Part shown: positions 1,175-19,573 of the stretch, in pieces
Layout: each line of letters starts with the position of its first letter
Position numbering within the stretch: position 1 is the first letter of the stretch
Made by a program: the position numbers and the translations under genes
NCBI RefSeq assembly: GCF_900167395.1
Contig: NZ_FUWK01000008.1
Span: 43,942 to 72,287 of the forward strand
Length of the DNA: 28,346 bases
Reading direction: 5' to 3'
DNA from: Nitrosomonas europaea
GTDB taxonomy: Bacteria; Pseudomonadota; Gammaproteobacteria; Burkholderiales; Nitrosomonadaceae
Notes under the pieces: generated by a model
What the model saw: the letters and a program-made list of their open reading frames with translations, nothing else
The model's database searches: none
What the model was told of the DNA's origin: nothing

Positions 1175-1297
1175 GTCTGGTATCAGTTTTTTGGATGGAG
1201 TGACGATAAAGAAATCATATTCAGGTCAATTTCTTCAGTTTGAGATTGGCTGCGTCGGTTATGCTAAGTGTTTTGGTTGTCTATCCAGAGATCAACT

Positions 1298-1993: not shown

Positions 1994-2018
1994 TGGTTTT
2001 TATGAGATGGGGCGAAAA

Positions 2019-2519
2019 ATGAAAACAGGACACTTTTATCTGATGGTAAAAAATATCCGATCCTGCCTTGTGCTAATGGTATTGTCCTGTTTTACGGTCC
2101 AAACATACGCCGAAGATGTAACTGTCAGGTTATCAGTACAAAATATTCATCACCCGGAGTGGGAACGCGCAACGGATGAAGAGCTCGCAGTATTGAGAGG
2201 GGGATTCGTTCTTCCAAATGGTGTACATATTGATATGAGTCTGGAAAAGTTTATCCACTTGAATGATGTGCTGGTGCATTCATCCTCTCTTCAGCTTCCG
2301 GGCGCAGGTGTGGTTTTACAAGCGGGTATGCAGAATATGGTGTCTGATTCTATCACCGTGCCGGAACTCAGTACCTTCGTTCAGAATACACTGGATAGTC
2401 AGCATATTGAGGCATTGACAACCATCAATATAGAAGTCAGCAATCTGAAAGGGATTGCAGCGAATGGCGGCGGTCAGCAGGTTTTTACCGAATTTTTAGC
2501 ACCAGCTTTGTTGCGGTAG
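2019..2519 (+). CDS. Small secreted hypothetical protein in the Fap-like cassette
   Basis: The ORF 1935..2519 overlaps the upstream gene. In-frame ATGs at 2007, 2019 and 2043 all precede the signal-peptide-like KNIRSCLVLMVLSCFTVQTYA-ED. The start choice is uncertain. No family was recognised. Confidence 0.5.
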   Translation: MKTGHFYLMVKNIRSCLVLMVLSCFTVQTYAEDVTVRLSVQNIHHPEWERATDEELAVLRGGFVLPNGVHIDMSLEKFIHLNDVLVHSSSLQLPGAGVVLQAGMQNMVSDSITVPELSTFVQNTLDSQHIEALTTINIEVSNLKGIAANGGGQQVFTEFLAPALLR

Positions 2520-2540
2520 CTATTCTGTACGCCATCAAGC

Positions 2541-3929: not shown

Positions 3930-4118
3930 TTCCATTTATAAATCAAAACTAAATTTGTCGGCTTCACCTTGCCGTATTATTTATACCGTCTGTGGCTCGC
4001 CTTCATGTCATTTTTGATTTGGGAATGGAATAAGTTGTTTTCCTTCTTTGCCTTGCCTTTGTTTTGTAGTATGACGAGAGTGTTGTAGCGGTTGGTAAAA
4101 AGAAGGCCGCCAAGTCGA

Positions 4119-4652
4119 TCATTGACAGCTATCCTTGTTTCCATCGCACCAGATTTTTCTGATTTTTTCTTCCATTCCGGCATTCATACCGGCAGCACGA
4201 CCTTCTTTGAAAGCGATTTCCGGGGCTATGCCTTCGCTCAGCCGGTAGGCAGTCCACATGGCACCAGCACGGTTACCGGTAGCACAATGGATCAGAACGG
4301 GGGGGGCTGCCTGCTCTAAAGCCTGTTTGAAGGCTGTTAGCTGTGACTCATTTACCCCTTCACCGGTGACAGGGATATTGATATAAGTTATGCCGACTGC
4401 TTCAACAGCTTTTTTCTCGCTTGGTGTCCCTTCTGATTCACTGCGCAGATCTATTACAGTCTGAAAACTGTGCTTGACGAGCTCCTGAATGCCATCTTTG
4501 GTAAGTGCTCCGGAAGTAGCAATATTGGGCGTGACGCGCAAATAACGCATCAGATCGTTAATCTGTGTAGCGTAGGGTACCTGATCTTTTGCAGATACCC
4601 AGCCTGATGACGATAAAGCGAGAATGATGATAAAAACTCTCACAAAAAACAT
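4119..4652 (-). CDS. Exported CX5R phosphatase-fold protein (DSP-PTPase-like / TIGR01244-type sulfur-transferase domain)
   Basis: The N-terminal signal peptide is MFFVRVFIIILALSSSGWVSA. The active-site-like motif HCATGNRAG matches HCxxGxR(S/T/A)G. Confidence 0.6.
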   Translation of the reverse strand: MFFVRVFIIILALSSSGWVSAKDQVPYATQINDLMRYLRVTPNIATSGALTKDGIQELVKHSFQTVIDLRSESEGTPSEKKAVEAVGITYINIPVTGEGVNESQLTAFKQALEQAAPPVLIHCATGNRAGAMWTAYRLSEGIAPEIAFKEGRAAGMNAGMEEKIRKIWCDGNKDSCQ

Positions 4653-4864
4653 TTTGACCTCCGATCATAATTGGAATGTGTAAAAATCGTAGCATGAATG
4701 CTCGGGTGGATAAAAGAGCAGATATGAGTTACGGCGAGGAATAACAATTTCTGGCCGATCCCGGCGTTTGATCACTCAAATCAGGGAAAGTCACGTTTGA
4801 TTGTGTTGGCAAGTATGGTGATTGACAACTGATTTGCCATTTTTTACTAAGGGTTGATGAACAG

Positions 4865-5956
4865 GTGTTCACCGCTTTGGATTATGAGTATATGTCCCAT
4901 GCGCTGCGGCTGGCCGAAAGGGGGCTGTTTACCACCAGCCCGAATCCTCGGGTAGGGTGCGTAATCGTCAATGGCGGCAAGGTAGTTGGAACAGGGTGGC
5001 ATGAGCGGGCAGGGGAGCCACATGCAGAAATTCATGCATTACGGAAAGCAGGGGATTTGGCCAAGGGCGCTACTGTTTATGTAACACTCGAGCCTTGCAG
5101 TCATCATGGCCGTACACCACCTTGCGTCGAGGCTTTGATTCAGGCAGGGGTGTGCAAAGTAGTCATGGCGATGAATGACCCTAATCCGCATGTAAACGGT
5201 CAAGGAAAGGAATGGTTGCAGAAAGCCGGTATCGCAATACAAGCAGGTTTGCTGGCTGATCAAGCAGAGCGATTGAATATCGGATTTGTTACCCGAATGC
5301 GACATGATCGTCCATGGGTGCGGACTAAGATAGCAGCCAGCTTCGATGGCAGAACGGCTCTGAAGAATGGAAAGAGCCAGTGGATTACCAGTGAGCCGGC
5401 TCGGCGGGATGGCCATAAATGGCGAGCACGTTCATGTGCGATACTGACAGGGATCAGCTCGGTCAGGAAGGATGACCCTCAACTGACGGTGCGGTATATT
5501 ACGGTCTCCAGGCAGCCAATGCGCATAGTGGTGGATTCGAACCTGGAAACTCCCTTGCAGGCAAAGTTGCTGCAGAATGCAGATACAACTTGGATCTTCA
5601 CGGCACAGACCAGCAAAGAAAAAATACACCGACTGGAAGATACCGGTGCTCACATCGTTGTTTTGCCTGATTTGGCCGGAAAGGTTGATCTCAAAGCCAT
5701 GATGGTGAAGTTGGCCGAATTAGGTATCAATGAGCTGCTGGTTGAAGCAGGCCCGGTACTGAACGGAGCGCTGGTAACAGCTGGGCTGGTGGATGAAATC
5801 ATTTTTTATTTTGCCCCCAGCCTGTTGGGTAATTCAGCACAAGCGATGCTGGCATTGCCTGAAATCGGGGATTTATCAGAGAAGTATGATTTGCAAATAT
5901 CCGATATTCGAAAAATCGGGATGGATGTCCGTCTGATAGCAAGGTTTATGAAATGA
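4865..5956 (+). CDS. ribD: Bifunctional riboflavin biosynthesis protein RibD (pyrimidine deaminase / uracil reductase)
   Basis: The start is GTG. Deaminase zinc motifs HAEIHAL and PCSHHGRTPPC are present. A C-terminal reductase domain is present, and the length of 363 aa is typical. Confidence 0.9.
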   Translation: MFTALDYEYMSHALRLAERGLFTTSPNPRVGCVIVNGGKVVGTGWHERAGEPHAEIHALRKAGDLAKGATVYVTLEPCSHHGRTPPCVEALIQAGVCKVVMAMNDPNPHVNGQGKEWLQKAGIAIQAGLLADQAERLNIGFVTRMRHDRPWVRTKIAASFDGRTALKNGKSQWITSEPARRDGHKWRARSCAILTGISSVRKDDPQLTVRYITVSRQPMRIVVDSNLETPLQAKLLQNADTTWIFTAQTSKEKIHRLEDTGAHIVVLPDLAGKVDLKAMMVKLAELGINELLVEAGPVLNGALVTAGLVDEIIFYFAPSLLGNSAQAMLALPEIGDLSEKYDLQISDIRKIGMDVRLIARFMK

Positions 5957-6047
5957 GGTTAGAAGTGCAGGGAATGATAAAGAGAAAAGGTTTTTTGCCG
6001 TTGGCAGAAGATATTGATGGTGCCACTACTGAATCATGAGCTGAATT

Positions 6048-7253
6048 ATGCGAATTCTGCACATTCTGGATCACTCTATTCCGTTACACAGCGGTTATAC
6101 ATTTCGCACGTTGGCGATCCTGAAAGAACAGCGCGACCTGGGGTGGGAAACGTTTCATGTTACCAGCGCCAAACATACCGGCTCGGTTGCGCTGGAAGAA
6201 GAAGTCGATGGCTGGCATTTTTACAGGACGCCGGAGCATTCCCGTTTTGCCAGCAGACTGCCGATTCTGAATCAGATCGCTGTGATCAATGGTTTAGCTC
6301 GGCGGGTGGCTGATATCGTGCGAATCATCAAACCGGATCTTTTGCATGCCCATTCACCGGCACTCAATGCGATTCCCGCTCTGATCGCTGCGCGTAAAGC
6401 TTCTATACCGGTTATTTATGAGGTGCGCGCCTTCTGGGAAGATGCAGCAGTGGACCACGGCACCAGCAGTGAATGGGGTGTACGCTATCGTCTGACACGC
6501 GGGTTGGAAAATTTTGCACTTCGGCGTGTAGATGCAATCACTACGATTTGTGAAGGATTGCGAAATGACATGATCGGACGGGGTATTGCACCGGAAAAGA
6601 TTACGACTATTCCCAACGCGGTCGATATCGAGAAATTTGCTGCAAGCCGTCCGGCGAATGAATCACTCAAGGAGCAGTTTGGATTAAAGAGCAAGCGCAT
6701 CATCGGGTTTATCGGCTCTTTTTATGCTTACGAGGGGCTGGATATATTGCTACGGGCTTTGCCGATCATGCTGCTGCAGCATCCTGATTTGCGTGTATTG
6801 CTGGTCGGTGGCGGGCCACAGGATGGGCAGTTGCGGCAACTTGCCAGCCAGCTTGGTATCGGGGATAAAGTCATTTTTACCGGCCGTGTCCCACACGATA
6901 AAGTGCAGGATTACTATGATTTGATTGACGTTCTGGTTTATCCGCGCCTTTCCATGCGACTTACTGATCTCGTCACTCCTTTGAAGCCGCTGGAGGCTAT
7001 GGCACAGGGCAGAGTGCTGGCTGCTTCGGATGTGGGAGGACATCAGGAACTGATTCGTGACAACCATAACGGTATTTTGTTCAAATCCGGTGATCCGAAT
7101 TCACTGGCGCAAAAAGTCGGAGAGCTGATAAACGTGCCAGGCCGGTGGGAAGATTTGCGCAGGGCTGGACGGGAGTTTGTCGAGACTGAACGTAACTGGC
7201 GGAAAAGTGTGGCGAAATATCAGTTTATTTATAGTAATTTGCTCAATAAATAA
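6048..7253 (+). CDS. GT4-family glycosyltransferase (resembles the PEP-CTERM/exosortase-associated sugar transferase subfamily)
   Basis: The N-terminus MRILHILDHS.P..SGY matches the family. The C-terminal GT-B region has the E..G....EAMA.G.PV..S..GG..E-type motif (PLKPLEAMAQGRVLAASDVGGHQELI). The subfamily call is from memory only. Confidence 0.75.
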   Translation: MRILHILDHSIPLHSGYTFRTLAILKEQRDLGWETFHVTSAKHTGSVALEEEVDGWHFYRTPEHSRFASRLPILNQIAVINGLARRVADIVRIIKPDLLHAHSPALNAIPALIAARKASIPVIYEVRAFWEDAAVDHGTSSEWGVRYRLTRGLENFALRRVDAITTICEGLRNDMIGRGIAPEKITTIPNAVDIEKFAASRPANESLKEQFGLKSKRIIGFIGSFYAYEGLDILLRALPIMLLQHPDLRVLLVGGGPQDGQLRQLASQLGIGDKVIFTGRVPHDKVQDYYDLIDVLVYPRLSMRLTDLVTPLKPLEAMAQGRVLAASDVGGHQELIRDNHNGILFKSGDPNSLAQKVGELINVPGRWEDLRRAGREFVETERNWRKSVAKYQFIYSNLLNK

Positions 7254-7405
7254 ATGTAGACTAAATATTGGGGCTACAGATATCGCCTGAGCTTGAATTT
7301 TCTAATTAATTGCGTGTATTAACCACTTAAAACGTTTCGCTGCGTGTTGCCCAGGGCGGCTTTTTATGGTTCCTGACAAATCTAGGGCGTGGAAATTTTA
7401 ACAGT

Positions 7406-8674
7406 ATGAAACTAGCTCCCGAGGAGACTGAGAACAAAGACAAGAAAGATACTAATAATCCCGGGATTGTTGTATTTTCTTCACTTTTTCCGCACTCGGG
7501 TCAGCCTAATGCTGGTTTGTTCATTCGTGAACGTATGTTTCGGGTGGGAAAACATCTTCCGCTCGTGGTGGTGGCACCCGTACCCTGGTTTCCATTTCAG
7601 AAAATTCTTCGCAGATGGCGCCCTCATTTCAGACCGGATGCTCCTTATATGGAGCTTCAGGAAAATATTGAGGTTCTCCATCCACGTTTTTTTTCCATTC
7701 CGGGATTTTTTAAGTTTCTGGATGGTTTTTTCATGGCATTAGGCAGCTTGCCTGTTTTGTGGCGGCTCAAGCGACGTTTCGATTTTAAGATTATTGATGC
7801 GCATTTTGCCTATCCGGACGGTTACGCTGCGAGCCTTCTGGGGAGATGGTTCCGGGTTCCTGTCACGATTACCTTGCGAGGCACGGAGGTACGGCTTTCC
7901 CACAGATTTTTATATCGAGATCTTATGCGTTCAGCCATGATACGTGCTGCGAAGATTTTTTCAGTATCGGATTCTTTGAAACAGGTAGCAGTGGCAATCG
8001 GAATCCAGGAAAGCAAAATACTCGTGGTGGGTAATGGTGTGGATCTTGATAAGTTTTGTTGTATTGATCGGTCTGAAGCGCGTAAGAGCCTGGAAATACC
8101 GGAAGATATACCGATATTGATATCGGTGGGTGGGCTTTGTGAGCGCAAGGGGTTTCATCGTGTCATCGCGTGTCTGCCTGACTTGATAAGTACTTACCCT
8201 GGTATTCAATTTTTGATAATCGGTGGTGCAAGTGCCGAGGGTGACTGGACTGAGCGTTTGCAACAGCAGGTTTCTGAATCGGGGTTTGAGAAAAATGTTC
8301 GTTTTCTGGGTGTCATGCCACCAGATCAGTTGAAGATTCCGCTTTCTGCTGCTGATTTATTTGTGCTTGCTACAAGAAATGAGGGATGGGCTAATGTATT
8401 TCTCGAAGCAATGGCATGTGGTTTGCCGGTGGTGACTACTGACGTAGGCGGAAATGCTGAAGTAGTCTGTCGTTCGGAACTGGGTAAACTGGTTCCTTTT
8501 AATGATCAGCAGGCACTTTGCCAGGCAATTGCCAATGCACTGGAAGTAAATTGGGATCGAGAAAAAATAATCATGTACGCTCACGCAAACTCGTGGGATC
8601 AGAGAGTAGCTGTCCTTGTAGAAGAATTTGTGAAGATCACCTGCCAATCTGAGTTGGCGGAACAATATCGTTAA
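7406..8674 (+). CDS. GT4-family glycosyltransferase
   Basis: Motifs are VVFSSLFP....PNAGLFIRER at the N-terminus and NEGWANVFLEAMACGLPVVTTDVGGNAEVV (the GT4 EX7E-type region). Confidence 0.75.
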   Translation: MKLAPEETENKDKKDTNNPGIVVFSSLFPHSGQPNAGLFIRERMFRVGKHLPLVVVAPVPWFPFQKILRRWRPHFRPDAPYMELQENIEVLHPRFFSIPGFFKFLDGFFMALGSLPVLWRLKRRFDFKIIDAHFAYPDGYAASLLGRWFRVPVTITLRGTEVRLSHRFLYRDLMRSAMIRAAKIFSVSDSLKQVAVAIGIQESKILVVGNGVDLDKFCCIDRSEARKSLEIPEDIPILISVGGLCERKGFHRVIACLPDLISTYPGIQFLIIGGASAEGDWTERLQQQVSESGFEKNVRFLGVMPPDQLKIPLSAADLFVLATRNEGWANVFLEAMACGLPVVTTDVGGNAEVVCRSELGKLVPFNDQQALCQAIANALEVNWDREKIIMYAHANSWDQRVAVLVEEFVKITCQSELAEQYR

Positions 8675-8676
8675 CC

Positions 8677-10032
8677 ATGGCTGGTATTTATACACATTTG
8701 ATATCCGGATTCCTGTTCCCGCTTCATGAACACCTCAAGCGGCACGCCAGTGTCAATGTGCGTAAATCCATGGAGCAGACTCAATGGTTTTCTCCTGAAA
8801 AGATCGTGCAGTTACAGACTGAAAAACTGCGTCAGTTGCTCATTCATATAAACACACATGTTCCCTATTACCGCACGCTGTTTGCTGAGTTGGGTTTTCA
8901 ACCGGAGGAAGCTGGTTCACTGGCTGATTTGCAATACCTGCCTTTTCTCGATAAATCAATCATTCGTACACATCTGGAGGAACTCAAATCTGATCAGGCG
9001 CGAGGGCTCGTTCGTTTCAATACGGGAGGATCCAGTGGCGAACCGCTGGTTTTTTTTATCGGCAAGGAACGTGTCAGCCACGATATTGCCGCAAAGTGGC
9101 GAGCTACACGCTGGTGGGGCGTGGATATAGGTGATCCCGAAATCGTTGTCTGGGGTTCTCCGATCGAATTGGGTGCGCAGGATACGTTGCGTTCATGGCG
9201 GGATCATTTGTTTCGCAGCAGATTATTGCCCGCATTTGAAATGTCCGACCAGAAGCTCGATGATTTTCTTGATACGATCCGCAGGTTTCATCCCAAAATG
9301 CTGTTCGGTTATCCCTCGGCTTTGTCGCATATAGCGAAATATGCTGATAAATCAGGTATTAAGATGTCCAATTTGGGAATTCAGGTGGCTTTCGTCACTT
9401 CGGAACGGCTGTATGATGATCAGCGCAGACAAATCAGTGACACTTTCGGCTGTCCGGTTGCAAATGGTTATGGGGGGCGTGATGCCGGGTTCATTGCTCA
9501 TGAATGTCCTGCAGGCGGAATGCATATCACCGCTGAGGATATCATCGTTGAAATTGTCGATTCTAACGGCCATCCCCTTCCATACGGAGAATCAGGCGAA
9601 ATTGTGGTGACTCATCTGGCAAGCAGAGATTTCCCTTTCATTCGTTATCGTACCGGGGATATTGGTATTCTGGATGACAGAACATGTGATTGCGGGCGGG
9701 GATTACCGCTGCTTCGGGAGATACAGGGCCGCAGCACCGATTTTGTCGTTGCGCAGAATGGTACAGTCATGCACGGGCTGGCACTGATTTATATTTTGCG
9801 AGACATGCCGGAAGTAAAAGTTTTCAAAATCATCCAGGAGAGCCTGGATTTCACCCGAGTTCAGGTCGTTGCAGAGACCGGCTTGCATCCGTCGCAGATC
9901 AGCCGGATCACCGAATCGTTTCAAACCAGACTGGGTCGGGATGTAAAGATCAAGGTGGAACAGGTATCTGAAATTCCGGCTGAGAAATCAGGCAAGTTTC
10001 GTTATGTGGTCAGTAAAGTGGCCGGGGTTTGA
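8677..10032 (+). CDS. Phenylacetate-CoA ligase / coenzyme F390 synthetase-like adenylate-forming enzyme (CapK-like)
   Basis: The P-loop-like motif TGGSSGEP, together with YGGRDAG and YRTGD, matches the PaaK/F390 family. The gene starts 3 nt after the upstream glycosyltransferase stop. Confidence 0.7.
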   Translation: MAGIYTHLISGFLFPLHEHLKRHASVNVRKSMEQTQWFSPEKIVQLQTEKLRQLLIHINTHVPYYRTLFAELGFQPEEAGSLADLQYLPFLDKSIIRTHLEELKSDQARGLVRFNTGGSSGEPLVFFIGKERVSHDIAAKWRATRWWGVDIGDPEIVVWGSPIELGAQDTLRSWRDHLFRSRLLPAFEMSDQKLDDFLDTIRRFHPKMLFGYPSALSHIAKYADKSGIKMSNLGIQVAFVTSERLYDDQRRQISDTFGCPVANGYGGRDAGFIAHECPAGGMHITAEDIIVEIVDSNGHPLPYGESGEIVVTHLASRDFPFIRYRTGDIGILDDRTCDCGRGLPLLREIQGRSTDFVVAQNGTVMHGLALIYILRDMPEVKVFKIIQESLDFTRVQVVAETGLHPSQISRITESFQTRLGRDVKIKVEQVSEIPAEKSGKFRYVVSKVAGV

Positions 10033-10033
10033 A

Positions 10034-10654
10034 TTAATCAGTCGATTGCACAAAAGGTATAGGTACTCCCATCCATAACAGTGCAACTACTATCAGCGCG
10101 ATTCCCACACCGGTAGTTCCCACGATCATCCCAGCAATGATGGTCAGACCATCCTTGCTGAGTAACCCCAATGACATGATGAGGATTCCCAGGCCGGGAA
10201 GAAAATTGATCAGGGGGACCGGCAGTGCAATGGAAATCGAGAAAATGAATGAAAAGAGGCCGATGATACGTTCCCAGGCATGTACACTGATGTAAGTCAG
10301 CCGCGGATGCATGTGGCTTTCAATTTTGCGTAACCATGGTGCTGCCTTGGTGATTAATTTGTCCAGTGTTCCCCTTTTTATGGTTTTTTTTGTCAACCAT
10401 TCTGGAATCCACGGCGCTTTCATGCCACATATCATTTGGATCGAGAAAATAAACAGCGGAATGGCAAAAACAGTAGTGTACCCAGGTGGTGCGGGAACAG
10501 GCAGACAGATCGGTAAAGTAGCAATGGCGAGCAGCACGGCAAAGCCACGCTCGTGCAATGAGTTTTTGATTTCGTCCACACTGATCACTGCATTGGTGTT
10601 TTGTACGACGATCAGTTGCAATAGTTCGGATGTATTTTTTTCCTTGTTCTCCAC
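10034..10654 (-). CDS. exoD: Exopolysaccharide synthesis protein ExoD family (membrane)
   Basis: ERGFAVLLAIATLPICLPVPAPPGYTTVFAIPL is the typical ExoD N-terminal signature. Several TM segments are present. Its stop lies 1 nt from the convergent upstream gene stop. Confidence 0.7.
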   Translation of the reverse strand: MENKEKNTSELLQLIVVQNTNAVISVDEIKNSLHERGFAVLLAIATLPICLPVPAPPGYTTVFAIPLFIFSIQMICGMKAPWIPEWLTKKTIKRGTLDKLITKAAPWLRKIESHMHPRLTYISVHAWERIIGLFSFIFSISIALPVPLINFLPGLGILIMSLGLLSKDGLTIIAGMIVGTTGVGIALIVVALLWMGVPIPFVQSTD

Positions 10655-10934: not shown

Positions 10935-11411
10935 TTGGATAAATTTATTGAGCAGGTATCGCTTTACATCCAGGAAGCCCCGGTCTGGCCATTTACATTG
11001 CTGGGTTTTATTCTGGTAGTGGGTGTGGCGGTGGATATCATCAATCGCCGGCGCCGTACCGCAGCGGTGGAATATTTTGATTTGGCTTTTCAGGAAGAAC
11101 TGACTGGCTTGTATCCTGCCGCCACCCGCTGGCCGGATGATCTGGCAGCTTATATGCAACCGCGTTTACCCATTCTGCGTGATGCTTTTGAAGTGCTGAG
11201 GAATTTCATTCCGCAGAATCAGTTGCGCGAATATAACGCTGCATGGAACAGGTTTTACCAGTTCTCGCGCACAGGTGGAAACGAGCGGCCAGTCTCCCTG
11301 GAAGATGCTGCACAGGAGCTCGCGGTTAACCAGCCTGATCTACAGCAGCAACAGGCTTTTCAGCAGATGATTTCAGATTTGCTGGCTTTTGCCACGCAAT
11401 TCAAAAAATAA
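10935..11411 (+). CDS. Hypothetical membrane-anchored protein
   Basis: TTG start with GAGGAG 5 nt upstream. There is one N-terminal TM segment (VWPFTLLGFILVVGVAV). No family was recognised. Confidence 0.45.
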   Translation: MDKFIEQVSLYIQEAPVWPFTLLGFILVVGVAVDIINRRRRTAAVEYFDLAFQEELTGLYPAATRWPDDLAAYMQPRLPILRDAFEVLRNFIPQNQLREYNAAWNRFYQFSRTGGNERPVSLEDAAQELAVNQPDLQQQQAFQQMISDLLAFATQFKK

Positions 11412-11498: not shown

Positions 11499-12656
11499 AT
11501 GAAAATATCTCCGAGTCGTCAAGTGAAAGGGGAAATAGAAATTATCCCGGTTTCAGGCTTTCGTGGAATTGGAAAATTCATTGATGTTCCCTGGCGACTC
11601 TATGCGGATGACCCTTTGTGGGTACCGCCTCTCCGGCTGGAGCGACGATTGCATCTCTCCAGGTTCAATCCCTATTTCAGGCATGCACAATGGCAAGGAT
11701 GGATTGCCTGTCGTGATAATCAGCCGGTTGGCAGAATCAGTGCACAGATAGATGAACTGTACCAGCAACGCTACGGGACGGATACCGGGCATTTCGGGAT
11801 GCTGGAATCCATTCAGGATGAAGCAGTTTTCAGTCGGCTGATACAAGTAGCCGAAAGCTGGTTGGTTGAACGGGGAGTACGTCAGATCAGCGGGCCGTTC
11901 AATTTTTCTATCAATCAGGAATGTGGCTTACTGGTTCAGGGGTTTGATACACCTCCCGTTTTCATGATGCCTTATTCACCGGAGTGGTATACCAGCCTGC
12001 TGGAACAAAACGGCTATCAGCCTTGCAAGGATTTACTGGCCTACTGGCTGGTAACGGATTTTGACCCGCCTCCTGCCATGCAGGCGATCGATCGTAAGTA
12101 TCGGCATCAGATCCGAATCAGGCCACTGCAACGCAATCGATTCAATGAAGAAATAGAAACCATGCGAGACATATTTAATGATGCCTGGTCTGATAACTGG
12201 GGATTCGTTCCCTTTACGCAGGAAGAATTTGCCGAGCTGGGCAGTTCTTTGCGCTGGCTGGTCCCGGATGAATTTATCCAGATAGCGGAAATAGACGGGA
12301 GGCCCGTCGCCTTCATGGCGGTACTGCCGAATCTGAATGAGGTACTCCCGGCACTGAATGGAAAACTTCTTCCTCTTGGCTGGCTTCACCTGATCAATAA
12401 ACTGAAATCCGCTTCAATTACTACCGGTCGGGTTCCTCTGATGGGTGTCCGCAAGCAATTTCACCATACTCTTGTCGGAATAGCACTGGCGTTCAAAGTC
12501 ATCGATGCTCCCAGAAAAATGGTTAAATCCCGTGGTATCGGGCATGTCGAATTATCCTGGATACTTGAAGACAATCAATCCATGCGTGCGATTCTGGAAA
12601 AAATTGGCGGCAGGGAGTACAAGCGCTATCGTATTTACGATAAGACGCTGGCGTGA
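11499..12656 (+). CDS. GNAT-like acyltransferase-fold protein (large about 385-aa type)
   Basis: ATG at 11499; the listed ORF begins at TTG 11496. This is a long conserved-looking ORF. The C-terminal half (RPVAFMAVLPN...GIALAFKVI...SWILEDNQSM) looks like an acetyltransferase core. The assignment is by recollection. Confidence 0.5.
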   Translation: MKISPSRQVKGEIEIIPVSGFRGIGKFIDVPWRLYADDPLWVPPLRLERRLHLSRFNPYFRHAQWQGWIACRDNQPVGRISAQIDELYQQRYGTDTGHFGMLESIQDEAVFSRLIQVAESWLVERGVRQISGPFNFSINQECGLLVQGFDTPPVFMMPYSPEWYTSLLEQNGYQPCKDLLAYWLVTDFDPPPAMQAIDRKYRHQIRIRPLQRNRFNEEIETMRDIFNDAWSDNWGFVPFTQEEFAELGSSLRWLVPDEFIQIAEIDGRPVAFMAVLPNLNEVLPALNGKLLPLGWLHLINKLKSASITTGRVPLMGVRKQFHHTLVGIALAFKVIDAPRKMVKSRGIGHVELSWILEDNQSMRAILEKIGGREYKRYRIYDKTLA

Positions 12657-12705
12657 TCAGGGTGTAGTCGATCATCAGAAAAATTCAAACACTGTTCCGT
12701 CCGTA

Positions 12706-13524
12706 ATGAGCAATAACGATCAGTTTGCCGCCCTGGTACTGGCAGCCGACCGGGGCAGCCAGGATTCCGTGGCACGGTATGCAGGAACGGTATGCAAGGC
12801 TTATGCTCCTGTTTGTGGTAAACCTATGGTCATTCGTGTGCTCAATGCTCTGAATGATTGCCATAAAATAAAATCGGCCCTTTTATGCGGCCCGCCGGAA
12901 TCACTGCTTTCAGCTTGCGAGGAACTCGAACAGCGTATCGATACCAGGCAGGTGGACTGGATGGAAAATCTGGATTCACCAGCTCGCAGCGCTGCTCACG
13001 GGCTTTCACGTATCGACTCGCAACAACCGGTTTTATTGACTACAGCGGATCATGCACTGCTTACCTCGGAAATCGTGGAATATTTTTTGCAGGTTTCCAG
13101 TAATCTGGAGTGTGACGCGGTTGTCGGGGTCATCAGATATGAAACCCTGCAAGCCCGGTATGGTGATACCCGGCGTACGGTGATACGGTTGCAGGATGGG
13201 AATTTTTGTGGCTGTAATCTATTCGCATTCAATAATGTACGCGGGCGTACGCTGGTGGATTTCTGGCAGCAGGCGGAAGCATTGCGCAAGCGTCCGTGGA
13301 AGCTGATCAGCCGGGTACTGGGCTGGCAGGCTGTGTGGTCATACCTGCTCGGACGTTTGACGCTCGACCAGGCATTGCAGAAAATTTCCGGGAAAACAGG
13401 CGTTCGGGTGTGCCCGGTAATTTTGCCCTTTCCTGATGCCGGCATCGATGTCGATAAAGTAGAAGATCTGCAACTGGTGGAATCCATCCTGATCCGGTCC
13501 GATTCAACACGCCCCTTGATGTAA
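12706..13524 (+). CDS. MobA-like NTP-transferase family protein (nucleotidyltransferase)
   Basis: ATG at 12706 avoids overlap with the upstream gene; the listed ORF starts at 12505. The N-terminal AALVLAADRGS is a degenerate LAGG.S.R nucleotide-binding loop. TTADHALL and the C-terminal IDVD..EDL resemble the NTP_transf_3 family. Confidence 0.55.
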   Translation: MSNNDQFAALVLAADRGSQDSVARYAGTVCKAYAPVCGKPMVIRVLNALNDCHKIKSALLCGPPESLLSACEELEQRIDTRQVDWMENLDSPARSAAHGLSRIDSQQPVLLTTADHALLTSEIVEYFLQVSSNLECDAVVGVIRYETLQARYGDTRRTVIRLQDGNFCGCNLFAFNNVRGRTLVDFWQQAEALRKRPWKLISRVLGWQAVWSYLLGRLTLDQALQKISGKTGVRVCPVILPFPDAGIDVDKVEDLQLVESILIRSDSTRPLM

Positions 13525-13542
13525 GACGGTCGGCTGATTTTC

Positions 13543-14619
13543 ATGAAAATCATTGAAAGGTACATCACACGGGAACTGCTGTTTCCTTTCATCGTGGTGA
13601 CGGTCATCCTGATCGGGCTTTTCGTCAGTTTCAGTGTTGCACGGTTTTTGACCAGTGCCGTGACTGAAACGCTTGGTACTGCCGCCATGTTCAAGCTGGT
13701 CGGATTGAAAACCATCATTGCGCTGGAAGTGCTGGTTCCCATTGCGTTCTATGTGGCGGTCATCTATGGTTTGAGCCGGATGAACCGGGATCAGGAAATC
13801 AATGTACTGCGCACCGCCGGATACGGGGATAACCGGATCATCCGTACCGTTTTCGTGATTGCTCTGCCGATTGCCATTCTCAGCGGGATTCTTTCCGTTT
13901 ATGCCCGTCCGTGGGCTTATGCGGAAAGCTATATCATGGATGCGCAGGCTGAAGCTGAATTGAATACCAACCGGTTCCAGCCTGGAAGGTTTTATGGCAG
14001 TGAAAAAAGCGGTCGAGTGATTTTTATCCGGGGTAAAGATGATCTGGAAAAACGTATGGAAGGCGTTTTCCACTACATCAGAACGACTGAAGATAGAGAA
14101 ATCATTATTTCCAGGGAAGGTTATCAGCAGCCGATGACTGCAGAACAGTGGCCGCATATCGAACTGCGGGAAGGCCAGATCTATCGTCTCAGCTTTGATA
14201 CTGTCAAAGACAGCGCCATTCGTTTTGAGAAGATGATCTATTTCAATGAAAACGATCAGGCTCAGAACTATCGGCGCAAGGCGGCATCTACTCGTTCCTT
14301 ATGGGATTCTGAAGAACCGCGTGAAATTGCAGAGTTGCAGTGGCGGCTTTCACGGCCTGTCGCAACTGTTCTGCTTGCGCTGATCGCCGTTTCTTTTACC
14401 CGCACCGCACCACGCAAAGATAAAACAGACAGAACCTTTCTTGTCGCTGCACTGGTCTTTGCTGTTTATTACAATCTCAGCGGATTAGCCAAGACTTGGG
14501 TGGAGCAGGGCGTGGTAGCCGCCATGCCCGGAGTCTGGTGGGTATATGGATTGCTTATCATAATCGTTATGCTGCGCCTTCCCGAGCTCAGATCTTTATT
14601 GCCTGCAGGAAAACAGTGA
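13543..14619 (+). CDS. lptF: LPS export ABC transporter permease LptF
   Basis: MKIIERYITRELLFPF is the canonical LptF/LptG (YjgP/YjgQ) N-terminus. The topology is TM, periplasmic domain, TM. It pairs with the next gene. Confidence 0.85.
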   Translation: MKIIERYITRELLFPFIVVTVILIGLFVSFSVARFLTSAVTETLGTAAMFKLVGLKTIIALEVLVPIAFYVAVIYGLSRMNRDQEINVLRTAGYGDNRIIRTVFVIALPIAILSGILSVYARPWAYAESYIMDAQAEAELNTNRFQPGRFYGSEKSGRVIFIRGKDDLEKRMEGVFHYIRTTEDREIIISREGYQQPMTAEQWPHIELREGQIYRLSFDTVKDSAIRFEKMIYFNENDQAQNYRRKAASTRSLWDSEEPREIAELQWRLSRPVATVLLALIAVSFTRTAPRKDKTDRTFLVAALVFAVYYNLSGLAKTWVEQGVVAAMPGVWWVYGLLIIIVMLRLPELRSLLPAGKQ

Positions 14620-15683
14620 AGATCTGTCATCGTTATATCGCCTGGCAGGTTTTGACGGGAATGGTTATCGCTACTGCCATCCTGTTACCTCTGTTCAGTT
14701 TTTTTGATTTGCTGGATCAGCTTGATGACGTAGGGAAGGGGACATATACCACCTGGGATGCTTTTCTGTATACCGTCATGCTGATGCCCCGCAGATTCAT
14801 CCAGATTGCACCGTTCATCGCACTGCTGGGGACGGTGGGTGCGCTGGGTGCGCTGGCAGTCAATCTGGAACTGGTGGCGATGCGGGTGGCAGGGCTTTCT
14901 CCCTTGATGATCGGCCTTGCTCCGGTTGGAATTGGAGGATTACTCATTGCCTCGACGATAGCACTGGAGTATTTTGTGGCTCCTCAGTTTCAGCAGCAGG
15001 CAACGATATTGCGGGCAGTTGCACTGGAACAGGGGGCTGAACTGGGTAAGGGGCTCGGTATCTGGACACGAAACGAGCGGAATATATTGCGTATTGGTGA
15101 GATGTTGCATAAAGGGCGTGCTACGGATATCGAAGTCATCCATTTTGATGGAGAGGGATCCATGACCGCTCATGTCCATGCATGGTATGCAGATATTTTT
15201 GATGAGAGTTTATGGAAGCTGCATGACGTCACGATACGTACATTCTCCCCGGATCGCATCACTTCCAGGAAGGCACACATCCTTCAGTGGCATTCGTTTC
15301 TGGGCCCGGACGATATTGCGACACTGACCAAGTCGCCGGAAAGTCTGACGCCAATAGAGCTGGTGAAACATGCTGAATTTTTGAGGGCGACCGGCCAGAA
15401 AGCGGATGCCTACGTTATGGCGTTGTGGCGCAAGGTTGGCGGGGCGATCATGACAATTGCGATGATCCTGGTCGCCATTCCCTTTATCTTCGGCTCTGTA
15501 CGTGAAGGATTGGGGGGTAAACTGATTCTGGCTGCGCTCATGGGGATCAGTATTTACCTGTTTGATCAGATCATTGCCAATATCGGACTGGTATTCCAAT
15601 TGAACCCGATTGTCGTTTCGGTTGTACCCGGAATGGTTCTGATTGCTGTCGCAGCACATTGGCTGTTACGGCGCACTTTTTGA
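14616..15683 (+). CDS. lptG: LPS export ABC transporter permease LptG
   Basis: A GTG start at 14616 overlaps the lptF stop (GTGA). VKICHRYIAWQVLTGMVIATAILLPLFSFFDLLDQL is typical of LptG. The listed ORF start at 14496 would overlap lptF by 124 nt. Confidence 0.85.
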   Translation: MKICHRYIAWQVLTGMVIATAILLPLFSFFDLLDQLDDVGKGTYTTWDAFLYTVMLMPRRFIQIAPFIALLGTVGALGALAVNLELVAMRVAGLSPLMIGLAPVGIGGLLIASTIALEYFVAPQFQQQATILRAVALEQGAELGKGLGIWTRNERNILRIGEMLHKGRATDIEVIHFDGEGSMTAHVHAWYADIFDESLWKLHDVTIRTFSPDRITSRKAHILQWHSFLGPDDIATLTKSPESLTPIELVKHAEFLRATGQKADAYVMALWRKVGGAIMTIAMILVAIPFIFGSVREGLGGKLILAALMGISIYLFDQIIANIGLVFQLNPIVVSVVPGMVLIAVAAHWLLRRTF

Positions 15684-15684
15684 G

Positions 15685-16920
15685 ATGAATATGACTACTG
15701 CTTTCTTCGTTCACATTATCGGCAACAGTAAAACCAGTCTGTGGGGGATGGATGGGCGTACGCGCCTCGAGCGGATGCTGGGAACGATCAAGACGGTTGC
15801 AGTGGTGAAAGAGGTATCACAATTGACCGAAACGGATCCCGTGTTGCTGCTGCGTGCTGACTATCTGTTCGATAGCAGAGTGATCAGTGCGCTGATGGCA
15901 TTGCATGAACCGGCCGTACTCGTGGCTCCTATGGATGAGACTCCGGTTGCGATTCTGATTGACGGGAAAAATGCCGCTGCGATGTGTGAAGTACTGAACG
16001 AAAAAAGACCGGCACCTGACGATCTTCCCGTTCGTACCTTGAAAGACCTCCCGATTCAGGTACAGCAGAATCTGAAGAAGAAGGATCCGCCCTATGTATT
16101 GCCGATCCGGCGTTGTAACCAGGCCGAGCTTGAATCAGAGCTGTTTGCCGCATCCTATAAGGGTGTAACCGATCTGGTCACCAAATGGCTATGGCCCTGG
16201 CCGGCGTTTATGGTAACGCGCCTGTGTGTTCGACTGGGTCTGAAGCCCAATCATGTGACGCTGCTCAGTCTGGTTCTGGCGGTGCTGGCAGGCGTGGCAT
16301 TCTGGTATGGCGCGTTTGGTATCGGCCTGATCATGGCGTGGCTGATGACTTTTCTGGATACGGTCGATGGCAAGCTGGCGCGTGTCACGCTGACATCAAG
16401 CAAGCTGGGCGATGTGCTGGATCACGGTCTGGATATCATTCATCCGCCGTTGTGGTATCTGGCCTGGGGGGTGGGCCTCATGGCCACCGCCACACCTGTA
16501 GCGGATCTCGAATTGCTGGTCTGGCTGATGTTCATTGGCTATGTGGGGGGCCGTCTTTGTGAAGGCGCTTTCCAGTTCTGGCTGGCATCTTTTGATATTT
16601 TCATCTGGCGTAAAGTCGATTCGTTCCATCGTTTGATTACCGCACGGCGCAATCCGAATCTGATCCTGCTGACTGCCGGCTGGATGGCAGATCGGCCGGA
16701 TATCGGATTTATCTTGGTTGTATTGTGGCATCTGCTTTCAACTCTGTTTCTCGCTTACAGATTGTTCGCTGCCTGGCAAAGCCGGTCACAGGATGGTGTG
16801 CTTCATTCCTGGATGGAGAACATCGATCCCGTTCGGGACAGGCAGCAGCTTGCCGTCAGAATATTTACCCGGTTACCTTTTCCCCAACGGTATGTCAATC
16901 CCGCCGCAGATAACGAGTAA
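15685..16920 (+). CDS. CDP-alcohol phosphatidyltransferase family protein with an N-terminal extra domain of about 170 aa
   Basis: ATG at 15685 lies 1 nt after the lptG stop. The signature DTVDGKLARVTLTSSKLGDVLDHGLD matches D.(2)DG.(2)AR.(8)G.(3)D.(3)D. Multiple TM helices follow. The soluble N-terminal domain resembles a degenerate nucleotidyltransferase fold. Confidence 0.8.
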   Translation: MNMTTAFFVHIIGNSKTSLWGMDGRTRLERMLGTIKTVAVVKEVSQLTETDPVLLLRADYLFDSRVISALMALHEPAVLVAPMDETPVAILIDGKNAAAMCEVLNEKRPAPDDLPVRTLKDLPIQVQQNLKKKDPPYVLPIRRCNQAELESELFAASYKGVTDLVTKWLWPWPAFMVTRLCVRLGLKPNHVTLLSLVLAVLAGVAFWYGAFGIGLIMAWLMTFLDTVDGKLARVTLTSSKLGDVLDHGLDIIHPPLWYLAWGVGLMATATPVADLELLVWLMFIGYVGGRLCEGAFQFWLASFDIFIWRKVDSFHRLITARRNPNLILLTAGWMADRPDIGFILVVLWHLLSTLFLAYRLFAAWQSRSQDGVLHSWMENIDPVRDRQQLAVRIFTRLPFPQRYVNPAADNE

Positions 16921-17893
16921 CCCGGCGGTGGATCTGATCCCTGCCAGGATTGGCCTGATTTACAACCCGCTGGGAGGCTGGTTTCGCAAGCATACTGCGC
17001 GGATGCAGAGTCTTCTGGCAACATTACCGGAAATTAGACAGATTCAGGCAACCGATCAGATCGAGTTTGAACGTGCTGTCACTGTCGTAGTTGAAGCGAA
17101 GATCGGGTGGCTGATCGTTGTGGGGGGAGATGGCACTCTGCAAGGGGTAATGAGTTGTCTGTTTGAGTGCCTGCCACCGGACAGGTGGCCGGAAATCACC
17201 ATCGTGCCCGCTGGAACGACCAACATGACCGCACTGGATCTGGGAATGAATGGGCAAGCCGAGCAGATTTTGTCCAGAATCAGGCAACATCTGCAACGAC
17301 CCGGTGACATGAAACAGGTACGAAGACCAGTGCTGCGTATCGAGCAGACCGGTATGAGGAATGTGTATGGAATGATGCTCGGTCTCGGCCTGATTGCGCG
17401 TGGCGTAAAATTTTCACGCAGTCAGATCAAGCAATTGGGAATGACCGGTAACATTTTTACTGTCGTGATCGTATTGCGTTCGCTAATAGGCATGTTTCTG
17501 GGGCGTCCGCAAGCCGAATGGGCTCCGGTACGTGTTGCCCAAATAGATGAAACAGGGGTGTTGAGCGAGAAAGTGTATCTGTTCGCACTCATCAGTGCGC
17601 TGGAGAAGCTATTGCTCGGCATTCGCCCCTATTGGGGGCAGGAACCGGCACCGCTGCATGCGACATTTATCGGGCAACACAGTCGGCGGTTCTGGCGCGC
17701 TATCTGGCCCCTGATCGCAGGGCGTGGTCACCATTTGCAGAAGGAAGACGGCTATACCAGCTATAACACGGCTTCGATCGAGCTGTGGCTGGATGATGAA
17801 TATATCGTGGATGGTGAGCTCTACTATGCTTCCAGCCGGAATGGTCCGCTGAAAATTACAGCCGATGGCCCGATTCTGTTCCGCATTTTATGA
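16892..17893 (+). CDS. Diacylglycerol-kinase catalytic-domain (DAGK_cat / YegS-like) lipid kinase
   Basis: IGLIYNPLGG ... LIVVGGDGTLQGV ... IVPAGTTNMTA match the DAGK_cat motifs. The start is uncertain: ATG 16892 overlaps the upstream gene by 29 nt, and GTG 16928 is an alternative. Confidence 0.7.
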   Translation: MSIPPQITSNPAVDLIPARIGLIYNPLGGWFRKHTARMQSLLATLPEIRQIQATDQIEFERAVTVVVEAKIGWLIVVGGDGTLQGVMSCLFECLPPDRWPEITIVPAGTTNMTALDLGMNGQAEQILSRIRQHLQRPGDMKQVRRPVLRIEQTGMRNVYGMMLGLGLIARGVKFSRSQIKQLGMTGNIFTVVIVLRSLIGMFLGRPQAEWAPVRVAQIDETGVLSEKVYLFALISALEKLLLGIRPYWGQEPAPLHATFIGQHSRRFWRAIWPLIAGRGHHLQKEDGYTSYNTASIELWLDDEYIVDGELYYASSRNGPLKITADGPILFRIL

Positions 17894-17907
17894 AAAAAGG
17901 AATATGA

Positions 17908-18873
17908 ATGGGTACCGCTGATTTACCAAATATCCTTGATCTTCTGATACAGGAAATTGCAATTCAGGATGCTCGACCTGTACATCCGGCATTTCAGGTT
18001 TTTACCGATGCATTGAGACAGCGTTTCGGAGAGGCACTGGATGCAGTCGTTTTATATGGCTCCTGTCTGCATACTTCTGATCTGACTGAGGGTATTGCCG
18101 ATTTTTATGTGCTGGTCAGTGATTACCGGCTGGCTTATTCCGGTCGTCTGCTGGCCGGTCTGAATGCCTGGCTGCCGCCGAATGTCTTTTATCTGGAAGT
18201 TCCCGCTGCAGCCGGTGTGATGCGTGCAAAGTATGCGGTTATTTCGACGGCAGACTTTGAACGTGGCGCCCGGCAGTGGTTTCATCCTTATATCTGGGCA
18301 CGTTTTGCACAGCCGGCCAGATTGCTTTATGCCCGCGACGATCAGACCGGGAAGCGTGTTCATACTGCGCAGGCGAGTGCCGTACTCAAATTCATCAGTA
18401 CGACGCTGCCTGTACTTGAATCCGGACCCAGTGACTTGGAGATGATCTGGGCATCCGGTTTGATGCTGACTTATGCCGCCGAGCTGCGTGCAGAGCGTGA
18501 AGCGCGCGCGCGTCATCTGGTGCGGATTGATCCGGAAATTTACAGCCGGCTGACTGCGGCGGCCATGCCTGCCTTGATTCCGCTGCTGAGTTTACAGGCT
18601 GACGGACGATATCATATCGGGCCGATCACACCACTGAAAAGGTTGAGTGCACGTATCCACTGGCGTTTGCGGCGCTGGCAGGGCCGAGTGCTGTCGGTTC
18701 TGCGGTTGAGCAAGGCGACGATGACTTTCCGGGATTGTCTGGATTATGCTGCCTGGAAAATTGAACGCCATACCGGCATCAAAGTGGAAATTACGCCTAT
18801 GCTGAGGCGTCATCCGATTCTCTGGGGTTATAAAGTCATGTGGCAATTACTGCGGCGTGGTGTGTTGCGTTGA
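17908..18873 (+). CDS. Tam41/Mmp37-like protein (candidate CdsA-independent phosphatidate cytidylyltransferase)
   Basis: Motif order matches yeast Tam41 as I recall it. VLYGSCLH corresponds to FGYGSGVF, ADFYVLV to IDIILGV, and NVFYLEV...AKYAVIS..DF to GVYFNPF...KYGVVS..L. W..PYIWARFAQPARLL corresponds to W...YLAGRLQKPVKIL. This is not verified by search. Confidence 0.45.
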   Translation: MGTADLPNILDLLIQEIAIQDARPVHPAFQVFTDALRQRFGEALDAVVLYGSCLHTSDLTEGIADFYVLVSDYRLAYSGRLLAGLNAWLPPNVFYLEVPAAAGVMRAKYAVISTADFERGARQWFHPYIWARFAQPARLLYARDDQTGKRVHTAQASAVLKFISTTLPVLESGPSDLEMIWASGLMLTYAAELRAEREARARHLVRIDPEIYSRLTAAAMPALIPLLSLQADGRYHIGPITPLKRLSARIHWRLRRWQGRVLSVLRLSKATMTFRDCLDYAAWKIERHTGIKVEITPMLRRHPILWGYKVMWQLLRRGVLR

Positions 18874-18925: not shown

Positions 18926-19573
18926 ATGAAGTATTCAATCCGGTTCTTTGCCGTAATTTTTGCGATTTTCCTAACGGCCTGTTCCACCATGTATTACAGT
19001 GGACTCGAAAAAATCGGTATCCCGAAGCGGGATGTGCTGGTTTATCGGGTGGAGAAAGCAAGAGATACGCAGGAAGAAACCCGAGAGCAATTCAAATCTG
19101 CTCTGGAGCAGTTTTCTGCTGCTACCAATTTCAAAGGAGGGGATCTTGAGGGGATTTATAAAAAACTGAACGGTGAGTATGAGGCGAGTGTGAACAAAGC
19201 AAAGGAAGTCAGAAGTCGTATCGAGGATATCGAAAACGTCTCAGCTGCATTATTCAGAGAGTGGGAGCAGGAAATCACGCAATATTCAAATCCGGCATTG
19301 AAACGGAGCAGTCAGGACAGGCTGACTGAGACCAGGTCGTATTACAAGCAGCTCATTGCGGCCATGAAAAACGCAGAATCGAGGATACAGCCCGTATTGA
19401 CCGTTTTCAACGATCAGGTCATGTACCTCAAGCATAATCTCAATGCCCGGGCAATCGCCTCATTGAAAGGTGAATTGAAAACATTGCAATCGAATGTTTC
19501 GACTCTGGTTGCTGCAATGGAAAAATCCATCAACGAAGCTAATACATTTATCAGCAATATGGAGAAAAACTAG
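18926..19573 (+). CDS. DUF2959-family lipoprotein
   Basis: ATG at 18926 with GGGGAG upstream. The lipobox is FLTAC. YYSGLEKIGIPKRDVLVYRVEKARDTQEE..EQFKSALEQF matches the DUF2959 N-terminal pattern. The remainder is coiled-coil-rich. Confidence 0.65.
   Translation: MKYSIRFFAVIFAIFLTACSTMYYSGLEKIGIPKRDVLVYRVEKARDTQEETREQFKSALEQFSAATNFKGGDLEGIYKKLNGEYEASVNKAKEVRSRIEDIENVSAALFREWEQEITQYSNPALKRSSQDRLTETRSYYKQLIAAMKNAESRIQPVLTVFNDQVMYLKHNLNARAIASLKGELKTLQSNVSTLVAAMEKSINEANTFISNMEKN

Follow-up and report, generated by a model that had tools for sequence, protein, structure and literature searches.

A seven-gene block of Nitrosomonas europaea, probably a version of the Caulobacter phosphosphingolipid module

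Introduction

The closest described counterparts of the locus treated here are the ceramide phosphoglycerate (CPG/CPG2) cluster of Caulobacter crescentus and a row of seven genes, Neut_1100-1106, published gene by gene for Nitrosomonas eutropha C91 (PMC11324152). Our subject is a block of seven genes at positions 11499-18873 of a 28,346-nucleotide stretch from the sister species Nitrosomonas europaea (contig NZ_FUWK01000008.1, positions 43,942 to 72,287); this whole stretch is termed the window, and the genes are termed g1-g7 in their order along the + strand. An earlier annotation made from the letters alone, here the sequence-only reading, took the block for a self-contained lipid head-group pathway wrapped around lptFG and knew of no characterised pathway of this composition. 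The seven-gene block is already known, since Neut_1100-1106 stand in the same order as g1-g7, and the Caulobacter cluster has this composition. Nor is the pathway self-contained, with spt, acpR, cerR, aasR and cpgD elsewhere in the N. eutropha genome, and its lipid is taken to be ceramide-based. We put the probability at about 0.8 that this Nitrosomonas locus is a form of the phosphosphingolipid module of proteobacteria represented by the Caulobacter cluster.

Part of the Caulobacter pathway has been worked out. CpgB is biochemically shown to be a ceramide kinase, and CpgD is a CTP:phosphoglycerate cytidylyltransferase that makes cytidine diphosphate (CDP)-glycerate. Attachment of the first phosphoglycerate needs cpgB and cpgC, and that of the second needs cpgA and cpgD; the CC_1153-type nucleotidyltransferase is required for CPG2, and the CC_1158 phosphoesterase is not essential for it. 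In CC_1161 (CpgC) an InterPro domain of CDP-diacylglycerol (CDP-DAG) synthases has already been noted, with the proposal that the protein activates ceramide 1-phosphate. According to a 2026 preprint, the Caulobacter permeases LptF2 and LptG2 form a complex, bind LptB and become dispensable once sphingolipid synthesis is blocked.

In Nitrosomonas, Olea-Ozuna et al. 2024 (PMC11324152, Fig 7 and table S2D) used BLAST to assign Neut_1100-1106 as orthologues of the Caulobacter cluster: Neut_1100 to CC_1154 (CerS; 41% identity, 100% coverage, E 5e-105), Neut_1101 to CC_1153 (CofC-like nucleotidyltransferase; 33%), Neut_1102 to CC_1156 (LptF2; 24%, E 1e-9), Neut_1103 to CC_1155 (LptG2; 33%, E 6e-15), Neut_1104 to CC_1159 (CpgA; 41% over 96% coverage), Neut_1105 to CC_1160 (CpgB; 25%, E 2e-22) and Neut_1106 to CC_1161 (CpgC; 32%). 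The same work places spt, acpR, cerR and aasR elsewhere in the genome at Neut_0458-0461 and cpgD at Neut_0268 (44% identity). For the dihydroceramide acyltransferase, Padilla-Gomez et al. 2022 had named Neut_1100 and, in E. coli, yghO.

The block and its enzymes

The open reading frame (ORF) list of the window contains seven co-directional, closely packed + strand ORFs at 11499-18873, and an independent gene caller also predicts g1-g7 (on five near-identical metagenome contigs). The families that the sequence-only reading had named for them are borne out by these ORFs, by Pfam and NCBIfam profile searches and by structure models. Its list of junctions stands with one correction, the gap between g2 and g3, which is 18 nt rather than 19, and one addition, a 49-nt gap between g1 and g2. 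The GTG start of g4 lies on the stop codon of g3 (a GTGA overlap), g4 and g5 are separated by 1 nt if g5 starts at the ATG at 15685, and 14 nt lie between g6 and g7. Between g5 and g6 there is either a 29-nt overlap (g6 from ATG 16892) or a 7-nt gap (g6 from GTG 16928). Simple promoter and terminator scans of the block gave site counts not above those of shuffled sequence.

The first gene, g1 (11499..12656), encodes a predicted bacterial ceramide synthase (CerS/bCerS) of the YghO family, a tandem-GNAT N-acyltransferase. Its GNAT profile match is weak (23.8 bits); its predicted model, with a mean predicted local distance difference test (pLDDT) score of 81, has a tandem GNAT fold, and the best Foldseek matches are tandem GNAT proteins (E 4.5e-15). 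Homologues in Roseomonas and Pseudomonas sphingolipid loci are 46-52% identical, and the gene in the cerS position adjoining lptFG on a P. veronii plasmid is annotated YghO. It is the tandem GNAT fold together with the orthology to CC_1154 and yghO that identifies g1 as CerS/YghO. The idea that this GNAT-like enzyme acylates a head group is thereby set aside, because a CerS orthologue builds the backbone.

A second enzyme, g2 (12706..13524), is a MobA/CofC-like nucleotidyltransferase that matches NTP_transf_3 in Pfam (55.9 bits) and structure 2DPW in the PDB (E 1e-22). On pPNP1, a plasmid of Pseudomonas sp. JS425 with a sphingolipid locus, g2 matches the gene adjoining lptF and not the CpgD-like cytidylyltransferase. 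This match and the published orthology of Neut_1101 rule out g2 as CpgD and make it CC_1153 type.

The CpgA orthologue, g5 (15691..16920, or from the ATG at 15685), is a CDP-alcohol phosphotransferase. The CDP-OH_P_transf profile PF01066 scores 33.8 bits against a cut-off of 22, with the match limited to the C-terminal half, and the translation contains the complete motif D-x2-D-G-x2-A-R-x8-G-x3-D-x3-D (LDTVDGKLARVTLTSSKLGDVLDHGLD). Homologues in loci L086 (on pPNP1) and L087 are 42-47% identical. The transferase part is preceded by an N-terminal cytoplasmic domain of ∼170 amino acids (aa); a degenerate nucleotidyltransferase of the IPCT/DIPPS-like kind was considered for these 170 aa and dropped after an hhalign comparison with the g2 family (probability 4.8%). 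NCBIfam matches of g5 to phosphatidylinositol-phosphate (PIP), archaetidylinositol-phosphate and DIPP synthases all fall far below their cut-offs and were not used to name a head group.

The next gene, g6 (16928..17893 from a GTG start, or from the ATG at 16892), has the DAGK_cat fold (70.9 bits in Pfam). It adjoins g7 in 78 of 80 Nitrosomonadaceae loci and in 24 of 31 distant loci (both sets are described below). The DAGK_cat domain, the orthology and the synteny with cpgC assign g6 to the CpgB type, that is, as a predicted ceramide kinase.

By itself g7 (17908..18873) has no Pfam match at E <= 0.01; the Tam41 profile PF09139 reaches 12.3 bits against a gathering cut-off of 24. PF09139 is matched by 34 of 36 g7 homologues at E <= 1 (best 4.2e-6), and a profile of the g7 family matches the S. 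pombe Tam41 structure 6IG2 (E = 0.003) in an alignment that spans the stretch KY(G/A)V.S...W..Y.(A/W)(G/A)RF.(K/Q)P. The AlphaFold model (pLDDT 82) has Tam41 structures (6IG4, 6IG2 and 7ECD) as its top five Foldseek matches (E 5e-8 to 6e-7, template modelling score 0.49-0.59), and the matches that follow are ∼200 times weaker. The model thus gives g7 a predicted Tam41 fold, a nucleotidyltransferase domain with helical domains, and the label 'Tam41-like' of the sequence-only reading stands. For the substrate, the context favours ceramide 1-phosphate over phosphatidate, as has also been proposed in the literature.

Two g7 relatives, P0361 (662 aa) and P0470 (594 aa), are about twice the usual length with the CpgC-like part C-terminal; they may be CpgB-CpgC fusions or gene-calling artefacts.

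Proposed pathway and head group

Orthologues of cerS, cpgA, cpgB and cpgC, the genes by which a CPG/CPG2 cluster is recognised, are present and linked in the window. From the orthology of g1 and Caulobacter genetics, CerS would N-acylate a sphingoid base made by Spt, AcpR, AasR and CerR, which would be encoded elsewhere in the genome. CpgB (g6) would then convert ceramide to ceramide 1-phosphate, as the biochemistry of its Caulobacter orthologue suggests. CpgC (g7) would be required for the first phosphoglycerate and, to judge from the Tam41 fold, probably yields CDP-ceramide. The second nucleotidyltransferase, g2, would serve CPG2 and, with the unlinked CpgD, presumably supplies nucleotide-activated glycerate. 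CpgA (g5) would transfer the second phosphoglycerate with release of cytidine monophosphate (CMP), a role taken from Caulobacter genetics with a chemistry suggested by the family. Finally, by analogy with Caulobacter LptF2/G2, g3 and g4 would extract the anionic sphingolipid from the inner membrane for the outer membrane, probably powered by LptB. The last three enzymes of the block had been credited with lipid phosphorylation, CDP activation and head-group transfer; phosphorylation and transfer are retained, CDP activation is probable, and the backbone changes from diacylglycerol to ceramide because g6 is a CpgB orthologue.

Several points weigh against this interpretation. A search of the literature found no lipid analysis showing ceramides or CPG in any Nitrosomonas. 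The genes spt, cerR, acpR, aasR and cpgD lie outside the 28-kb window, and their presence in the source genome is deduced from relatives. Identities to the Caulobacter proteins are modest in the published N. eutropha values, at 25% for CpgB, 24% for LptF2 (E 1e-9) and 33% for LptG2 (E 6e-15). A CC_1158-type phosphoesterase is absent from all 85 Nitrosomonadaceae loci searched. The reactions of CpgA, CpgC and CC_1153 are not yet defined in Caulobacter either.

Some of these points would also suit a block that builds on the same ceramide backbone with the same Lpt-type export and attaches a head group other than (di)phosphoglycerate. The cluster is unlike that of Caulobacter in that it is without the CC_1158 phosphoesterase and has cpgD unlinked, the donor specificities of g2 and g5 are predicted ones, and the best NCBIfam matches of g5, all sub-cut-off, are inositol-phosphate transferases. 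We nevertheless consider another head group unlikely, given that the CpgA match extends over 96% of the length at 41% identity and that N. eutropha has a good orthologue (Neut_0268, 44%) of CpgD, the enzyme shown to make CDP-glycerate.

Co-occurrence with ceramide genes in distant lineages

A search of the literature for lptF and lptG with a CDP-alcohol phosphatidyltransferase found no described system; the lead to sphingolipid loci came from a tblastn search of g7 against plasmid records. Plasmid pPNP1 and a replicon of Roseomonas mucosa each hold homologues of all seven genes in one region, with 26-52% identity for the enzymes. Their partners there are a pyridoxal-phosphate-dependent aminotransferase, an acyl carrier protein, a short-chain dehydrogenase/reductase (SDR)/epimerase and a fatty acyl-AMP ligase. 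These correspond to Spt, AcpR, CerR and AasR, the signature of the proteobacterial ceramide pathway. Plasmid pPNP1 thus carries an entire sphingolipid locus, equipped with an lptFG of its own.

The P. veronii plasmid and an E. coli record have an spt locus of a related kind, which includes an acyltransferase of YghO type and a second pair of lptF and lptG. In these two loci tblastn gave no match to g7 (cpgC), and no CDP-alcohol transferase is annotated; yghR/S/T genes are present instead.

The distant set, 31 loci with a minimum length of 9 kb, was obtained by scanning metagenomes with distant relatives of g7 (36-46% identity to the query). Besides the g7 homologue, these loci contain cpgB in 24 cases, a CC_1158-type metallophosphoesterase in 23, cerS and a g2-type gene in 18 each, AasR in 17, CerR and LptG in 13 each, LptF in 12 and Spt in eight. 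Two of these loci, L163 and L167, have the order cerS-nucleotidyltransferase-lptF-lptG-cpgA-cpgB-cpgC, as in the window.

This company bears on another explanation, a self-contained glycerophospholipid route in which phosphatidate would come from a DAG kinase, CDP-DAG from the Tam41-like protein and a new head group from the CDP-alcohol transferase, with export of the product or its use in decorating lipopolysaccharide (LPS). The domain families alone are compatible with such a route, and Tam41 enzymes do make CDP-DAG. We regard it as very improbable all the same: g1 is a ceramide synthase orthologue, CpgB, the orthologue of g6, is a ceramide kinase, spt, acp, cerR and aasR accompany the full gene set in five independent lineages, and deletion of the Caulobacter orthologues removes sphingolipid species.

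Three further observations concern the distant loci. On pPNP1 (incompatibility group IncP; L086, 3896-5916) the cerS homologue is split by an IS5 transposase, and a class 1 integron integrase is found close to the sphingolipid locus. In the yghO region of E. coli (NZ_MG591698.1; L093, 10001-17780), strains with an intact yghO-spt region have a second lptF-lptG, named as an LPS exporter by the NCBI Prokaryotic Genome Annotation Pipeline (PGAP). A cluster look-up of ten distant g7 relatives named a single organism, a Methylococcales bacterium.

A sphingolipid-associated lineage of LptF and LptG

The two permease genes are g3 (13543..14619), of LptF type, and g4 (14616..15683, GTG start), of LptG type. 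Both proteins exceed the cut-offs of the NCBIfam equivalog models, g3 with 345.6 bits against 230 for LptF TIGR04407 and g4 with 310 bits against 240 for LptG TIGR04408. These models do not discriminate, because PGAP gives the names LptF and LptG to the extra pairs of the Pseudomonas plasmid and E. coli spt loci too.

Identities and trees separate the two kinds. For the window LptF, identity is 35% with the copy on pPNP1 and 31.6% with that of the E. coli spt locus, against 19-22% with canonical LptF of E. coli K-12 and 24-26% with those of P. aeruginosa, Ralstonia and Neisseria. When LptF and LptG are each placed in a neighbour-joining tree, eight Nitrosomonadaceae sequences join three spt-locus sequences in 80 of 80 bootstraps, and Ralstonia and Neisseria pair up inside the canonical set, apart from Nitrosomonadaceae. 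The alphaproteobacterial LptFG of Roseomonas is about equally distant from the spt-locus and canonical groups. These trees are small (15-16 taxa), and the clade deserves a fuller phylogeny. E. coli carries its own canonical lptFG in addition to the spt-locus pair, and Pseudomonas sp. JS425 presumably does so as well. The window pair does not adjoin pepA. We read the clustering with the spt-locus copies as placing the window lptFG, on sequence grounds, in a lineage that travels with sphingolipid genes and is distinct from the canonical LPS pair. The sequence-only reading had argued from the coupling to LPS-export permeases for an outer-membrane lipid or an LPS decoration; an outer-membrane lipid is still indicated, with the amendment that the pair falls in the spt-locus clade and not with the canonical LPS pair.

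That lptFG are simply the housekeeping LPS permeases, with flanking enzymes that decorate lipid A or core LPS before export, is hardly credible: both proteins do pass the (non-discriminating) equivalog cut-offs and g3/g4 may be the sole pair of the genome, but the pair clusters with spt-locus paralogues, which E. coli has in addition to a canonical pair, as Pseudomonas presumably does, and the flanking enzymes have sphingolipid rather than LPS-modifying orthologues.

A tentative extension, which we think doubtful, is that the block lptFG is the sole LptFG of Nitrosomonadaceae, the sphingolipid-locus lineage having replaced the canonical pair and extracting both LPS and the anionic sphingolipid. 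If so, the ammonia oxidisers would be a natural test case for dual-substrate Lpt transport.

Conservation within Nitrosomonadaceae

Using g7, we retrieved 80 species-level Nitrosomonadaceae loci, in which many of the missing genes reflect short contigs. Homologue searches and the genome scan gave only Nitrosomonadaceae among the matches listed, and the closest named relatives of the window belong to the europaea/eutropha group of Nitrosomonas. The closest genome locus is 88-95% identical over the seven proteins (93% for g7). Two N. eutropha loci (L009 and L010) have the same block, with proteins 78-85% identical to those of the window; we take N. eutropha strain Nm57 to be C91.

The block recurs in Nitrosomonas, Nitrosospira and Nitrosovibrio. 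Alongside g7, the 80 loci contain g6 in 78 cases, g5 in 66, lptF and lptG in 62 each, g1 in 60 and g2 in 52. The outer neighbours of the window block (two GT4 glycosyltransferases, a CapK-like ligase, ExoD, DciA and SecA) are kept in 6-14 of the 80 only. Because the block recurs while its outer flanks change, it is a unit and not background synteny, and the arrangement is far beyond chance. A check of neighbourhood conservation had been suggested with the sequence-only reading, and it came out in favour of the grouping: the flanking genes are syntenic with lptFG across all three genera.

Losses follow a pattern. Five Nitrosospira/Nitrosovibrio loci cleanly lack g5, and g2 is lost or fragmentary in nine loci, the N. 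communis group included. In N. mobilis and in the 2.4-Mb chromosome of an uncultured relative, g6-g7 stand apart from g1-g2-lptF-lptG-g5, which are still together elsewhere. That g6-g7 are nearly always retained while g5 or g2 is lost separately fits a two-stage pathway.

Side observations on these loci are as follows. In the N. oligotropha group (L030, 5570-7593; also L026, L037, L046 and L049-L051) ∼2 kb are inserted between lptG and cpgA, and, judged from the translations, its two ORFs resemble potassium transport proteins of the TrkA and TrkH types. In Nitrosomonas sp. Nm51 (L054, 15132-19260) aasR-cerR-acp-spt lie ∼4 kb downstream of g7 on one contig. In Nitrosospira sp. Nsp14 (L032, 11598-12298) cpgC is closely followed, on the opposite strand, by a CpgD-like cytidylyltransferase gene whose match falls into two adjacent parts, perhaps through a frameshift.

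Neighbouring genes

Two genes adjoin the block in many relatives. Upstream of g1 is a gene for a 158-aa protein (10935..11411, + strand) with one predicted N-terminal membrane helix, no Pfam match and no other family match. It is directly upstream of g1 in 44 of the 80 Nitrosomonadaceae loci and is absent from the 31 distant metagenome loci; in L094, a genome with a split block, it keeps this place with a gap of 3 nt. Possibly it is an accessory gene of this lineage, outside the conserved module. Downstream, a gene for a lipoprotein-like DUF2959 protein (18926-19573), with a signal sequence ending ...LTAC, follows cpgC in 59 of the 80 loci and in 0 of the 31. Since both are missing from the distant loci, neither was accepted as a member of the conserved core.

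Further upstream (1268-10654) the window has an exopolysaccharide-like region with no evident tie to the sphingolipid block. It contains a peptidase C39-domain protein, two unannotated ORFs, a dual-specificity phosphatase-like gene (- strand), RibD, two GT4 glycosyltransferases, a CapK-like AMP-binding ligase and ExoD (- strand).

Implications

The value of this work lies in annotation, not discovery. It supplies the names cerS, CC_1153-type nucleotidyltransferase, lptF2/lptG2-type permeases, cpgA, cpgB and cpgC for genes that should not be read as phospholipid genes around a housekeeping lptFG. The annotation predicts anionic phosphosphingolipids in the outer membrane of the ammonia-oxidising Nitrosomonadaceae; if correct, this bears on their envelope biology, polymyxin sensitivity and lipid biomarkers. 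The Tam41 fold predicted for CpgC and the CDP-alcohol motif of CpgA suggest specific reactions, open to test, for steps that are yet to be defined in Caulobacter. Given the loss of cpgA from some Nitrosospira/Nitrosovibrio and of g2 from the N. communis group, lineages whose pathway ends at CPG are to be expected.

Comparison with known systems

The Caulobacter cluster CC_1152-CC_1168 (CCNA_01210-01226) has counterparts of all seven window genes and shares their logic of ceramide synthesis, kinase, activation, CDP-alcohol-type transfer and LptFG-type exporter. In Caulobacter all lie in one 17-gene region, whereas the window has seven side by side, without spt, acpR, cerR, aasR and cpgD. Caulobacter also has CC_1158 and lptC2, neither of which has an orthologue in N. 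eutropha, and identity of the window permeases to the alphaproteobacterial LptF2/G2 type is only ∼22-33%.

Neut_1100-1106 of N. eutropha C91 belong to the same genus and match the block in both gene content and gene order; the species behind the window is another member of the europaea/eutropha group, and the published N. eutropha assignment is BLAST-based. The E. coli B/BL21-type yghO region and the Pseudomonas plasmid loci share cerS and a second lptF-lptG of the window clade and have spt, acp, cerR and aasR; pPNP1, like the window, also has cpgA, cpgB, cpgC and a g2-type nucleotidyltransferase.

For the enzymes, the nearest chemical parallel is mitochondrial Tam41 followed by a CDP-alcohol phosphatidyltransferase in the cardiolipin/phosphatidylinositol route, which would share with g7 and g5 the sequence of activation by CTP and release of CMP. 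However, g7 is ∼15% identical to mitochondrial Tam41, below the Pfam threshold, and its probable substrate is ceramide 1-phosphate, not phosphatidate. For the permeases it is canonical LptB2FG, of the same family and architecture as g3/g4, which exceed its NCBIfam cut-offs. The canonical LptFG of E. coli K-12, P. aeruginosa, Ralstonia and Neisseria nonetheless form a clade separate from g3/g4, whose relatives lie in sphingolipid loci of organisms that also have the canonical pair.

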